A DNA stretch of 64,000 nucleotides from a virus (Duplodnaviria > Caudoviricetes), in IMG/VR virus record IMGVR_UViG_3300032007_000009; one strand, written 5' to 3'. Numbering within the stretch: position 1 is the first letter of the stretch; each line of letters begins with the position of its first letter. This document shows positions 3,259 to 11,572 of this stretch, piece by piece. Position numbers and translations under genes: made by a program. Below the pieces are notes generated by a model. The model made no database searches, was not told where the DNA came from, and worked only from the letters and a program-made list of their open reading frames with translations.

Positions 3259-3329
3259 GACCCCATAGCTTAGTGGTAAAGCCCGTGACTTTTAATCACG
3301 TGACCTGGGTCCGATTCCCAGTGAGGTCA
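3259..3329 (+). tRNA. tRNA-Lys(TTT)
   Basis: CGTGA-CTTTTAA-TCACG; variant T-loop TCCGATT. Confidence 0.85.
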
Positions 3330-3347
3330 CAAAAATATTTTGAATAT

Positions 3348-4010
3348 ATGTTTAATTGTAAATATTGCAATAAAGAATGCAAAAATTTAAATTCATTACA
3401 TAACCATGAAATTTTATGTAAAGAAAATCCAAATCATAAAGAATCTAATTTTATTAAATTTAATAAAGATACTTCTCGTAAGCATTCAAATCAATATATA
3501 AAAGCTAAAGAAGAAGGAAAAGAAATAATTATGTCTGATGAAACAAAGAAAAAAATATCTTGGCTAGGAAAATATCATTCAGAAGAATCAAAACAAAAAA
3601 TTTCTAAATCAAGAAAAAAATATTTAAATAATAATCCAGATAAAATTCCTTTTAAGTTAAATCATTCGTCAAAACAAAGTTATCCAGAAAAATATTTTGA
3701 AGAATTATTCATTAAAGAAAATATTCCATTAAAATATCATAAACAGATTGATAGATATGAATTAGATTTTTATAATGAAGATTTAATGAAATATGTAGAA
3801 ATTGATGGAGAACAACATTATTCAGATTATATGATTCAACATGATAAAGAACGTAATGAATATTTAAAACAAAAAGGTTGGGAAGGAATTAGAATACGTT
3901 GGTCTGAATATAAAAAAATGAATAATGATGATAAATATAAAGTAATTAATAGTATAAAAGAATTTATTAATTGCCTCCTTGGCGTTAATGGTAGCGTACC
4001 AGATTCTTAA
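3348..4010 (+). CDS. Free-standing homing endonuclease (Zn finger + NUMOD3-like + DUF559/Vsr-like nuclease)
   Basis: CKYC..HEILC, GKYHSEESKQKIS (NUMOD3-like), YELDF..VEIDGEQH..HDKERNEYL..GWEGIRIRW; true start likely ATG 3348 since the upstream extension lies in a tRNA. Confidence 0.8.
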   Translation: MFNCKYCNKECKNLNSLHNHEILCKENPNHKESNFIKFNKDTSRKHSNQYIKAKEEGKEIIMSDETKKKISWLGKYHSEESKQKISKSRKKYLNNNPDKIPFKLNHSSKQSYPEKYFEELFIKENIPLKYHKQIDRYELDFYNEDLMKYVEIDGEQHYSDYMIQHDKERNEYLKQKGWEGIRIRWSEYKKMNNDDKYKVINSIKEFINCLLGVNGSVPDS

Positions 4011-7974: not shown

Positions 7975-8045
7975 GGTCCATTGGTATAGAGATTGTGCCG
8001 CTGCTTCTAACACAGCTGAGGTGGGTTTGAGTCCTACATGGATCA
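7975..8045 (+). tRNA. Probable amber suppressor tRNA (CTA anticodon)
   Basis: GGTCCAT/ATGGATC-A; GCTG(C)-TTCTAAC-(A)CAGC centres CTA at 8007-8009; the Arg(TCT) register pairs poorly. Confidence 0.65.
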
Positions 8046-8163
8046 CCTTTTTGGAGGAGAACATGGTATGAAATCCATGCAGTCCGACTTTGAAGGCTGA
8101 AGCTTTGAACGTTATTGAAGCCCTCTTTATTTTTATTTTATAACAAATTAAATTAATTAAATT

Positions 8164-8205
8164 ATGAAACAGTTTTGGTAGATTGCTGATTTAGGTTTTC
8201 CGTAA
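8164..8205 (+). CDS. Putative leader peptide MKQFW(amber)IADLGFP
   Basis: AT-rich start context; TAG at codon 6; ends Phe-Pro-TAA; followed by repeated TGTTCAA/TTGAAA-type pairing elements (TTGAAC). Confidence 0.4.
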
Positions 8206-8321
8206 ATTAAATGTATTTATTATTATGTTCAAAGTTTTCTTTGTGTTCAAAAATTTTGAACGGTTATATTTTATTGAACACCTTTTAGTTAAATTAAATA
8301 AATACATTAAATATTATAATT

Positions 8322-8771
8322 ATGGAAAATAAAGAATTAAGAAATGCATTAGTTAATGCAATTAAGAACGAGTTAAAAGATTTCACTCAAATTCAAAAGA
8401 ATTTAAAGAAGTCACGTAAATTAGAATTTCGTCCAAAGGACAAAAGCTTACAAGAAATTGTAGACGAAATTGATAGAAATGCAAGCAAAATTTCTACACT
8501 TATTTTTCATTATCGTTGGATTAGACACGGTCTTAAATATTGGAACAATAGAGATGTGCATTCATTTAAAGAGTATTATTTAAGTGATACATTTAATAAC
8601 AATTACTGGGGAGACTATTGGGATAAGGAAATCCTTTATGGTAGTAATAAAGGTAAAACACATGGTCAAATTATTACTGAACATGCAAAGAATTTCTTTA
8701 TCACAAAATGCAATGAATATGGTATTGAAATTTCAGAAAACAATGTCAATTATTTAATGCAAAATATTTAA
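8322..8771 (+). CDS. Hypothetical phage protein
   Basis: ORF track, operon context. Confidence 0.7.
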   Translation: MENKELRNALVNAIKNELKDFTQIQKNLKKSRKLEFRPKDKSLQEIVDEIDRNASKISTLIFHYRWIRHGLKYWNNRDVHSFKEYYLSDTFNNNYWGDYWDKEILYGSNKGKTHGQIITEHAKNFFITKCNEYGIEISENNVNYLMQNI

Positions 8772-8774
8772 GTT

Positions 8775-8996
8775 ATGGAACTTACTTACAAGATATTAAT
8801 TCAGAATGAAAAACAAGCACAAGATCTTATTAACGAATGGGATAATGATCAATGGAGACATTTTCTTCGATTAAAAGATTTTGAAAAATATCCTGCATTA
8901 GTATGTTATTATGATGATGAAAATGATTATTCAATGTCATATTCTGCTACTGTTTATTATTCTATAACTTATTTAGACGATTTTAAAAATTTATAA
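8775..8996 (+). CDS. Hypothetical protein
   Basis: Tightly packed ORF. Confidence 0.65.
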   Translation: MELTYKILIQNEKQAQDLINEWDNDQWRHFLRLKDFEKYPALVCYYDDENDYSMSYSATVYYSITYLDDFKNL

Positions 8997-8998
8997 TT

Positions 8999-9373
8999 AT
9001 GAAATTTACAAAAGAAGAACTTAAACAATTTATTTGGGATAATAGTAAGTTTAATTATATTTGTAAGAATATTTGTAAAGAACTTAGTCGATGGGATGAT
9101 TCTTTTAAATTTTCTGATGAATTTATAATGGAAGATAAAAAAGTAAGATGTGAAGGTGATGAATATTGGTCTTATGGTGGACATGAACATTACAGAAATC
9201 ATTTTGATATAGAATTACTTACTTATTCTAAAGATGAATTAAAAAAATATGTTGATAAAAAAATTGCTGAACGAGATGCTAAACTTAAAAAAGAAAACGA
9301 AATTAAGGAAGCATATCGTAAAGAACAAGAACTTAAAGAATTAAAAAGACTTAAAGATAAATATGAAAAATAA
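8999..9373 (+). CDS. Hypothetical protein
   Basis: Tightly packed ORF, C-terminal ELKRLKDKY motif. Confidence 0.7.
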   Translation: MKFTKEELKQFIWDNSKFNYICKNICKELSRWDDSFKFSDEFIMEDKKVRCEGDEYWSYGGHEHYRNHFDIELLTYSKDELKKYVDKKIAERDAKLKKENEIKEAYRKEQELKELKRLKDKYEK

Positions 9374-9701
9374 ACTTTATATATTAATTGATAAAAATTT
9401 AGATTCAATTTATGGATCAGTACAAGGTGGTCATGCAGTTGCTGAATGGTTGCTTGAAAATTGGTAGTTATTAAAAAATGGAGATCCATCTTGGGAATGG
9501 AATAATGATTATCTTATTTATTTATCAGTTGACATAAATAAATGGTATGAAACACTTGCCCCATATTATCCTTCTAAATTTAAATGGGCTGTTTTTAGAG
9601 AACCAGATTTAGATAATAGAATAACATCAATTGCAATTTATGAAAATGATTTTCCGGAAAATATAAAAAGAAAATTAAAAAATGAGGGGTTACTTAAATA
9701 A
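9363..9701 (+). CDS. Pth2-like peptidyl-tRNA hydrolase with in-frame TAG (9465-9467)
   Basis: Manual translation: MKNKLYILIDKNLDSIYGSVQGGHAVAEWLLENW*LLKNGDPSWEWNNDYLIYL...FREPDLDNRITSIAI...GLLK; QxGHA and FREPDL..ITxIA motifs on either side of the TAG. Confidence 0.75.
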
Positions 9702-9709
9702 CCCCTTTT
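9685..9709 (+). terminator. Intrinsic terminator
   Basis: AGGGGTTA-CTTAAA-TAACCCCT followed by T tract. Confidence 0.7.
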
Positions 9710-9778: not shown

Positions 9779-11572
9779 ATGAAAAAATTTATTTTAATTA
9801 TTATTTGTTCATTAATGTTATGTTTTTCTGGATGTTTGAAACATGATTTAGGGGAAAACACAGATATTAATACAAAAGAACACGCAGAAAATGTATTTAA
9901 TGTAGTTTTTGATAAAAATCAAGACTGGTGTACAACAACTAATAGTCAATTAACTATTTATGTTAATTCAAATGATGATAATATTAGTAAAGTACAAATT
10001 CTTACATCAAATATTACTGATTCAGTAAATACTATAAAATTACTTAATGAAGCAAATGTAAAAAATGGTGATGTAATTAATTTAACATATGATGTTCCAA
10101 TTAATCATAGTAATTTATTTGTTGCATTTATTAATAAAGACGGTAATTATTTTTATAGACCATTTACTTTAGGAGATGCAACAGTATATTATGATAAATC
10201 TAATCAGACTCGTGGTGAGATCATTGGTTGGAAACCAAGTTATCCAATTCCTTCAATTACTCCTGTAATTAATGGAACTATAAAAACATATGCAAATGAA
10301 AGAAATTGGTTACCAGGAGAAGTATTTTATAATTTTGATTATCAAACTACTAATAATGGAACATATGATAATGATTTTGCAATAACATTTAGAACTGTTA
10401 TATTTAATTATTTCCCAAATGGTCGTAAATATGATAATCTTCCACAAATTAAGAAATCTGGATATTATAACGAATCAGTATATCCTATTACAACAGGAAA
10501 TGAACCAATTGTAATATCACCAGTTTATAAAAATGATGGTGGATATCATGAAATTTCTGAAGCTGAACTTTATTATTATTACTTTAAAGGTAATCCTTCA
10601 GTAGAAGAAATAGAAGCTTTACCTAAATATAAAGCAATTGATTTAAGTAAAGTATATACAAATAATGAAAATGATAAAGTTGAAAAGAAGCCTTCTTATG
10701 TATTAGCATTCTTTGGTGATGGTAAACCTGAAATAGGAACAGTTGGTTCTTATAAATTTGATCCTGGTTATAAAATTGGTTTTGTTTATAAGTCTAATTC
10801 AACTGCTGATAATGGTAAAAAACAAGGAGAAGTATATGGAGATGGTCGTTTAAATTATAATATTAACAATTATGGTAATTTTAAATCATCTAAATTAGGA
10901 GATACAGAACCACGTATGGCTTGGATGTCAGTTAATAAAAAAATGTTCTTATGTGTTGAATCTGGTACTGATAAAGATTTTAATGATTTAATTCTTGAAG
11001 TTGAAGGTGGTATTGAACCAATTATTATTAACCCAGATGATCCAGAATATAATGATTATGTATTTTTATTTGAAGATCATAATCTTGGTGATTATGATAT
11101 GAATGATGTTGTTATCAAAGGTAATAGAATAAATGAAACAACAGTAAAATGGACCTTAATGGCTTGTGGTGCTCATGATGATCTTTATATTCATAATATT
11201 AATGGAAATGTAATCAATAAATATATTGAAGTACATGATTTATTTGGTAAGCCAAAAGGAGTATTTATTAATACACAAATAAATGGTACAAACACTAATT
11301 ATATAATTGATGTTGTAAAGGTTAATAAAAATTTCAGTTTCTTAGATGCATCAACACAACCTTATATTATTGATACCACAGAACCTGCAACAATTAAAAT
11401 AGCTACAGTTGGACAAGATCCACACGCTATAATGATACCTTATGATTTTAAATGGCCATTAGAACAAATATGTATTAAATATGCATATCCGCAATTTAAT
11501 ACATGGGGTGCAAATAAAATAACTTTTACTGATTGGTACAAATATCCTGAATCTGATAAAATTAAAAATTAA
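9779..11572 (+). CDS. Lipoprotein with LruC/DUF4842-like C-terminal domain
   Basis: Lipobox FSGC; DKDFNDL and FEDHNLGDYDMNDVV motifs, FKWPLEQICIKYAYPQF..W. Confidence 0.8.
   Translation: MKKFILIIICSLMLCFSGCLKHDLGENTDINTKEHAENVFNVVFDKNQDWCTTTNSQLTIYVNSNDDNISKVQILTSNITDSVNTIKLLNEANVKNGDVINLTYDVPINHSNLFVAFINKDGNYFYRPFTLGDATVYYDKSNQTRGEIIGWKPSYPIPSITPVINGTIKTYANERNWLPGEVFYNFDYQTTNNGTYDNDFAITFRTVIFNYFPNGRKYDNLPQIKKSGYYNESVYPITTGNEPIVISPVYKNDGGYHEISEAELYYYYFKGNPSVEEIEALPKYKAIDLSKVYTNNENDKVEKKPSYVLAFFGDGKPEIGTVGSYKFDPGYKIGFVYKSNSTADNGKKQGEVYGDGRLNYNINNYGNFKSSKLGDTEPRMAWMSVNKKMFLCVESGTDKDFNDLILEVEGGIEPIIINPDDPEYNDYVFLFEDHNLGDYDMNDVVIKGNRINETTVKWTLMACGAHDDLYIHNINGNVINKYIEVHDLFGKPKGVFINTQINGTNTNYIIDVVKVNKNFSFLDASTQPYIIDTTEPATIKIATVGQDPHAIMIPYDFKWPLEQICIKYAYPQFNTWGANKITFTDWYKYPESDKIKN

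Follow-up and report, generated by a model that had tools for sequence, protein, structure and literature searches.

Many large phages that keep the standard genetic code carry suppressor tRNAs that have no known job, and such tRNAs are currently seen as forerunners of genome-wide recoding. The locus described here raises the question of what an amber suppressor tRNA might act on in a phage of this kind. It lies in a window of 64,000 nucleotides, the whole stretch of DNA that was analysed, which corresponds to positions 74281-138280 of one 236-kb contig with a G+C content of 25.8%. A tRNA with the anticodon CUA (window positions 7975-8047, on the + strand, as are the leader, its RNA elements and the operon) is followed by a very short open reading frame with an in-frame TAG, and then by a four-gene operon. 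Comparison with related loci suggests that this short frame is likely to be a leader that senses UAG readthrough during translation and controls the operon, which would probably be translated only when the UAG is read through.

The contig itself reads as standard code throughout. Long open reading frames cover 83% of it under table 11 and 85% when TAG is counted as sense, and genome-wide TAG recoding was rejected because coding density gains only this much. Stop usage in the genome (n = 252) comprises 204 TAA, 35 TGA and 13 TAG, which makes TAG the rarest stop and TAA the preferred one. Eleven of the 13 genes ending in TAG have a second stop 0-14 codons on, where suppressor readthrough would add a short tail only. 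Outside the window, three frames remain open across a single TAG, at contig positions 189674-190648 (- strand; 156 + 167 codons on either side of the TAG), 230029-230475 (+ strand; 52 + 95) and 230635-231141 (+ strand; 74 + 93), and they are possible additional amber-gated genes. The 236-kb contig also contains a tRNA array, with more than 52 tRNA genes within 20 kb. Inside this array, at window positions 3273-4010, lies an HNH/DUF559-type endonuclease frame, and a similar gene is found near the leader in one ENA relative (L205).

The tRNA with the anticodon CUA is the last of the array and ends 116 nt before the leader. It scores 34.9 bits as an Rfam tRNA (gathering score 29); ARAGORN missed it at default settings and called it tRNA(cta) with the relaxed setting -ps90. 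Its D stem is 3 bp long, its anticodon stem is closed by a C31-A39 mismatch (an A-C in one relative), its variable loop is short, A73 is the discriminator, and the 3' end is encoded as ACC. The nearest tRNA in the genome is an Asp tRNA, not a Gln or Trp tRNA. Across the family, a same-strand tRNA(cta) lies no more than 700 nt upstream of the leader in 62 of the 67 loci with enough sequence, mostly at a distance of 100-125 nt, and five of the 67 show no tRNA(CUA) within that range.

The spacer between this tRNA and the leader (8048-8140) is folded and has a higher G+C content. In relatives (L010-L218), at least five structured modules recur in the spacers as a mosaic, and some of them have T arms resembling those of tRNAs. 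Theta ribozymes, which are HDV-like, are known to sit directly 3' of phage suppressor tRNAs (PMC10879173). A palindromic insert of about 32 nt, with the core TTGAAAATT.. and TTTTCAATAA, occupies variable positions among otherwise similar leaders and spacers, falling within the leader RNA in L043, L048 and L092 and within the pre-leader spacer in L019, L020, L032, L057 and L075. It looks like a small mobile hairpin element. In the A/T-rich region just before the leader (8140-8163), a TAACAAAT box roughly 20 nt ahead of the leader start is conserved. This region is a putative initiation region and may also act as a promoter or in processing; the genome's gene starts lack a Shine-Dalgarno-like signal.

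The leader frame occupies 8164-8205 and reads ATG AAA CAG TTT TGG TAG ATT GCT GAT TTA GGT TTT CCG TAA, giving 13 sense positions (M K Q F W TAG I A D L G F P) before the stop TAA at 8203-8205. Its sixth codon, the amber at 8179-8181, is the proposed sensing codon and in every case has TGG before it and a purine after it. The original prediction had named exactly this peptide and credited it with a good start context, and both points were confirmed: the context falls at the 83rd percentile of 180 confident gene starts and at the 99.8th percentile of all other ATGs. The leader is present as a single copy per genome.

Searches of rumen and gut phage contigs yielded 72 distinct leader regions with 52 distinct leader ORFs. 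All 72 versions keep TGG-TAG-(A/G)TT, an open frame after the TAG, and GGN-TTT-CCN-TAA. Conservation of the TAG and of the Pro-stop in homologous leaders, which had been put forward as a check on the sensor proposal, holds in 72 of 72, including 24 independent loci. The pattern used to search IMG/VR and a metagenome collection fixed ATG, CAR, TGG and GGN TTY CCN TAA and left codons 6-10 free, so that conservation of Gly-Phe-Pro-stop is partly imposed by the search, a bias that spares only the 24 loci found independently. The pattern returned 80 family members and 13 plainly unrelated, GC-rich chance matches. Codon 6 is TAG in every family member found in this way, and the next codon is ATT, or GTT in two of them. 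A search with the 5' half of the leader alone produced, among the matches listed, only known members and chance matches.

The TAG is also invariant in the 24 independent loci. Retrieval that made no use of the leader went through the Pth2-like gene (8 loci), a tRNA pattern (9) and homologues of the first operon protein in ENA and Logan assemblies (16), and every locus reached in this way carries a complete leader 103-116 nt before the next gene. In these loci, the distance from TAG to TAA is always eight codons, and the conserved leader codons change only synonymously (CAG/CAA, AAA/AAG, CCG/CCA/CCT). The eight IMG/VR loci found through the Pth2-like protein all carry the leader and share one order, namely tRNA-Trp, tRNA(CUA), leader, first operon gene, variable small genes and Pth2-like gene.

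Codons 8-10 vary freely, with 23 nucleotide versions, and their amino acids are poorly conserved. Codons 7-11, which the search pattern left unconstrained, occur in 28 distinct versions: none has a stop in the leader frame, and 11 and 28 of them have one in the other two frames. Because the TAG is invariant although it is the rarest stop, and because the frame behind it stays open, these sequences argue for selection on the codon as TAG and for a leader built so that ribosomes can translate beyond it.

Downstream of the leader, the operon spans 8322-9701 and consists of genes of 149, 73 and 124 aa (function unassigned), followed by a 112-codon gene at 9363-9701 that has an in-frame TAG of its own at 9465-9467. 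A terminator-like hairpin marks the operon end at 9684-9707. The first operon protein gave no lead from Pfam, PHROG or Atlas. With its TAG read through, the last gene matches phrog_3668 ('hydrolase') across the TAG, and its AlphaFold model reaches a pLDDT of 85. A Foldseek search with that model returned Pth2-family chains or uncharacterised archaeal proteins at ranks 1-10 and 12 (2zv3, 1wn2, 3erj, 1xty, 1q7s and 1rlk among them), with TM scores of 0.55-0.65 and E values down to 7e-5; the best PDB matches are all Pth2. The modelled protein has a Pth2 fold. Profile searches gave no Pfam hit (PF01981 included) and no PDB sequence hit, and membership of the Pth2 family at the sequence level was rejected, as the fold alone matches. 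The predicted setting, with the leader after a suppressor tRNA and ahead of an operon ending in a Pth2-like gene, is thus upheld, the last element by structural model.

The TAG at codon 35 of the Pth2-like gene is kept in eight of nine loci, and the gene appears as a fragment of 34 or 36 residues in 15 of 16 ENA/Logan loci. In IMGVR_UViG_3300031994_000322 (L005/L016), the Pth2-like gene has no TAG; Glu is aligned there and the loop is longer. This record retains the leader TAG and the tRNA(CUA) although its Pth2-like gene has lost its own TAG. Beyond the operon, window positions 9779-11572 encode a protein of 597 aa that matches DUF4842 and has a lipoprotein-like signal, and proteins of 588-633 aa occupy the same place in several relatives.

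How a short leader might control these genes is suggested by its complementarity to their start. The leader end GTTTTCCRTAA is the reverse complement of the next-gene start TTATGGAAAAY, with one G-U pair in the window, and the U of the AUG pairs with the third position of the Pro codon, as G-U or A-U. The helix formed in this way, P-alpha, joins the 5' strand GTTTTCCGTAA (8195-8205), made of the last leader codons and the stop, to the 3' strand TTATGGAAAAT (8320-8330), within which lies the first operon gene's AUG. RNAduplex predicts P-alpha in all versions; MFE folds of the window and one relative, with modest z-scores (-2.2 and -1.7), and RNAalifold on a MAFFT alignment predict it too. In one relative (L053), the next gene begins ATGAAACAG, which pairs poorly with the leader end. 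Covariation was rejected for this helix: its strands are nearly invariant, and GGT-to-GGA/GGG variants of the Gly codon are uncompensated in the start region. What supports P-alpha is therefore its complementarity and the fact that it is conserved ahead of unrelated genes. The sequence ATGGAAAA starts 2 of 180 genes genome-wide, yet it starts nearly every post-leader gene, across at least five unrelated protein families.

P-alpha runs on into a second helix, P1, an inverted repeat of 16 nt with 94% complementarity. Its 5' strand (8206-8221) directly follows the leader stop, and its 3' strand (8297-8312) lies 10-25 nt before the start of the first operon gene. Over 26 sequence classes, the cognate P1 duplex has a mean energy of -9.5 kcal/mol, compared with -5.0 when partners are drawn from other classes; the median share of non-cognate partners that do equally well is 1.5%. 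P1 covaries, as its sequence differs among classes and its complementarity is kept.

P1 in turn encloses a set of shorter segments, which the original prediction had described as repeats. They are present as described, with TGTTCAAA at 8226 and 8244 and TTGAAC at 8256 and 8274. By the window alone they are not above chance (TGTTCAAA is observed 7 times in the window against 6.7 expected), and the significance of the leader and the segments comes from conservation, not from window statistics. The conserved pairing joins segment 1 (8227-8234) to segment 3 (8254-8261) as stem S1, and segment 2 (8243-8250) to segment 4 (8274-8281) as stem S2, forming an H-type pseudoknot. Its three loops are 8, 3 and 12 nt long in the window; most relatives have loops of 6-10, 2-7 and 6-10 nt. 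In the MAFFT alignment, 86% of the stem cells are paired, compared with 32-47% for slid partners; both sides have changed in 12 of 18 pairs, and none of 500 shuffles reaches the observed score. Some classes have S1 swapped wholesale, for example to CTTATGTAA/TTACATAAG or AGCC/GGCT.

Other roles for this structured region were considered and rejected. A ligand-binding (riboswitch) pseudoknot was dismissed because loops L1-L3 are unconserved in sequence and no Rfam family applies; Rfam gave no match in 8048-8340 at E up to 1. Pseudoknots of the MuLV gag-pol type, which stimulate readthrough, begin about 8 nt after the read-through stop. Unlike these, S1 in the window starts 45 nt past the TAG and 21 nt past the TAA, and in relatives 15-25 nt past the TAA, distances too great for a readthrough stimulator. 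Pairing of the amber-codon region with the stretch before S1 has a mean z of 0.09 over 72 leaders and is not a family feature.

The proposed sensor of amber readthrough is supported comparatively, by an invariant TAG, an open frame behind it, an adjacent tRNA(CUA) and a leader 3' end that pairs with the AUG. At rest, the RNA would have the 11 nt at the 3' end of the leader paired to the operon start region and the next 16 nt to the stretch upstream of it, with the pseudoknot filling the loop, and the start site would thereby be buried. When release factor 1 wins at the codon-6 UAG, the ribosome would leave and the operon would stay silent. The mRNA helicase of a ribosome lies about 11 nt, and the end of its footprint about 15-16 nt, 3' of the first P-site base. 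With the UAG in the A site, the ribosome front would reach about leader nucleotides 24-28, and P-alpha starts at nucleotide 32. Release at the UAG would leave the mask intact because the ribosome front falls short of P-alpha.

When tRNA(CUA) decodes the UAG instead, the ribosome would translate eight more codons to Pro-UAA. With the UAA in the A site, it should span the entire 5' strand of P-alpha together with the initial 5-10 nt of P1, so that the mask would melt, the AUG and its upstream region would become free, and initiation on the operon could follow. The pseudoknot may serve as a clamp, either steadying the closed state or helping it to re-form faster. The Pth2-like gene would then need a second UAG readthrough. 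Slow release at Pro-UAA may prolong the open state, and X-X-Pro-stop arrest has been demonstrated experimentally in Bacteroidota leader peptides (PMC10987492). The Pro-stop noted originally is indeed conserved, but slow termination is not needed as its account: pairing to the AUG appears to explain the Pro codon equally well, and the Pro-stop at least as well.

Readings that keep parts of this picture and change others were weighed on the same evidence. The input to the same architecture could be RF1 activity, with host RF1 depleted, modified or inhibited in infection, rather than the phage tRNA(CUA). UAG is the only stop read by RF1 alone, and an input of this kind would suit a TAG that is invariant and never TAA, as well as the five leaders without tRNA(CUA) within 700 nt. 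It is nevertheless unlikely, as 62 of 67 leaders follow a tRNA(CUA) at about 100-125 nt, an RF1-poor ribosome without a UAG-reading tRNA would stall at the UAG and not advance, and an unsystematic look noticed no RF1-targeting gene. If the leader were M-K-Q-F-W only, with the TAG as its true stop, the stretch from ATT to TAA would be kept purely as an RNA mask strand under protein- or temperature-type control. A plain stop should drift to TAA in a genome where 204 of 252 stops are TAA, and this TAG never changes; the 28 versions are stop-free after the TAG in frame, with many stops in the other frames, and the distance to the TAA is a constant eight codons in independently found loci. These points make such a short leader quite unlikely, even though pairing with the next start fully accounts for GTTTTCCRTAA and codons 8-10 are weakly conserved as amino acids.

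A further possibility is that the region is an untranslated structured RNA, such as a stabiliser, a processing signal or a protein-binding site at the 5' end of the operon mRNA, and that its resemblance to a reading frame is incidental. The pseudoknot and long-range helices are its best-supported features, and the region comes after a long array of unusual structured RNAs. Against this, the ATG has a gene-start-like context, ATG, TGG, TAG and TAA are invariant in one frame, the absence of stops is limited to that frame, nine loci found through the Pth2-like gene show CAG/CAA and AAA/AAG changes, and no Rfam family covers the region, which together leave this reading very unlikely. Classical transcription attenuation, in which the position of the leader ribosome selects among pairings of four GTTCAA/TTGAAC segments, one of them a terminator, is the least probable and would be a considerable surprise. 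The original prediction favoured attenuator-like alternative pairings, and the segments do pair; the alternatives were not upheld, since 1:3 and 2:4 are always complementary and show compensatory changes, while 2:3 is impossible in several classes, such as GCTTACATAA/TATGCTC. In the window and the commonest class, 2:3 can form a hairpin and 1:4 can pair, and a T-run follows segment 4 in a few relatives, but a T-rich tract after the last stem is found in only 9 of 72 leaders, 8205-8322 contains no terminator-like site, and the segments lie at least 21 nt past the leader stop, beyond the reach of a leader ribosome. Because neither the 2:3 pairing nor a terminator is conserved, translational unmasking is preferred over classical attenuation.

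Translational unmasking by a leader peptide has relatives among known systems, yet the leader is a member of none of the ermC type, MS2 coupling or prfB. Leader-peptide translational attenuation is familiar from ermC/ErmCL, cat and cmlA. Like these, the locus has a short upstream leader frame on the same strand, which appears able to be translated, and a helix over the downstream start that the ribosome position would open or close, with the 5' strand of the mask within the leader frame (P-alpha) or beside it (P1). Unlike these, the proposed input is the decoding of a stop codon, not a drug-stalled ribosome. No conserved pair of mutually exclusive hairpins sharing a strand was found; the pairings are nested or interleaved and share no nucleotides. 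Moreover, the mask is a long-range helix that spans about 115 nt and closes a pseudoknot, and it pairs the AUG rather than a Shine-Dalgarno sequence. The hallmarks of trp/his transcription attenuation, a terminator with a U-run and an exclusive antiterminator, are lacking at this locus.

In RNA phage MS2, translation of the coat gene opens the Min Jou interaction, which masks the replicase start. The leader would similarly use translation of an upstream frame to melt a long-range helix that holds a downstream start region. The upstream frame of MS2 is a full gene without an internal stop, whereas the frame here is a 13-codon leader gated by UAG. The RF2 gene prfB provides a different likeness, as its in-frame UGA senses the RF2 level and is escaped by +1 frameshifting. 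Both cases would use a natural in-frame stop to sense how efficiently that stop is read as a stop. Unlike prfB, where the +1 frameshift occurs within the coding gene, the leader is proposed to rely on in-frame suppression by a tRNA, is a separate frame and would control other genes.

The C-terminal Pro directly before the stop, encoded as CCN TAA in all 72 leaders, recalls the X-X-Pro-stop peptides of Bacteroidota. In those peptides, toeprinting revealed stalling with the stop codon in the A site, and the downstream gene is regulated through RNA structure (PMC10987492). These peptides have about 100 residues, with a signal for the membrane or for secretion and with Asn at -3; they precede secA or secDF and contain no internal stop (PMC10987492). 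The leader differs in having 13 residues, Gly at -3, unrelated downstream genes and an internal TAG. It ends in (L/R/D/S/N)-G-F-P-stop, with Arg at the first of these positions in 19 of 64 leaders and no Pro-Pro, and thus lacks the R-(A/G)-P-P sequence of the RAPP/RGPP arrest peptides.

The nearest published thing is man-made. In the engineered 'Uaa transcriptional switch', a TAG placed in the tna or trp leader peptide makes transcription depend on tRNA(CUA) (PMC6412442, section 6, Fig. 8). That switch acts on transcription through Rho or attenuation, whereas the leader is natural and appears to act on translation initiation. Phage stop-codon recoding has been proposed as a late-gene timer (bioRxiv 10.1101/2021.08.26.457843). 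The present phage resembles recoded phages in carrying a suppressor tRNA, in its low-GC, TAG-poor genome from gut or rumen, and in having in-frame TAGs that would tie expression to the tRNA. Recoded phages have many recoded late genes; this one has a standard code, with TAGs in one leader and one small enzyme gene. The available portions of the phage-recoding literature (bioRxiv 10.1101/2021.08.26.457843, PMC10879173) describe no such leader sensor, and a full-text literature search found no published description.

A slight preponderance of the evidence favours a broader reading, in which the leader, the adjacent tRNA(CUA) and the TAG-interrupted Pth2 gene form a two-step, amber-gated circuit that senses the state of the genetic code. 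Such a circuit would give the orphan suppressor tRNAs of standard-code phages a target, in the concrete form of a conserved cis-element for which UAG readthrough is the only sensible input, and may be a regulatory seed of TAG recoding. Judged from sequence, its novelty would lie in leader-peptide control that takes the state of the genetic code as its input, and it would be the first natural counterpart of the synthetic amber-in-leader switches used in genetic-code expansion. The circuit would also tie code manipulation to a peptidyl-tRNA hydrolase, a hint at the way in which a phage deals with the side effects that suppression of host stops would bring. With a length of about 170 nt and nothing needed from outside it, the element is a potential portable part for sensing orthogonal tRNA activity.

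The samples behind the relatives are rumen and gut metagenomes. A phage database gave no DNA match to the locus, and the sole match in a genome collection is a 410-kb contig that is binned in an uncultured rumen Firmicutes MAG and is the same record as an IMG/VR virus contig.
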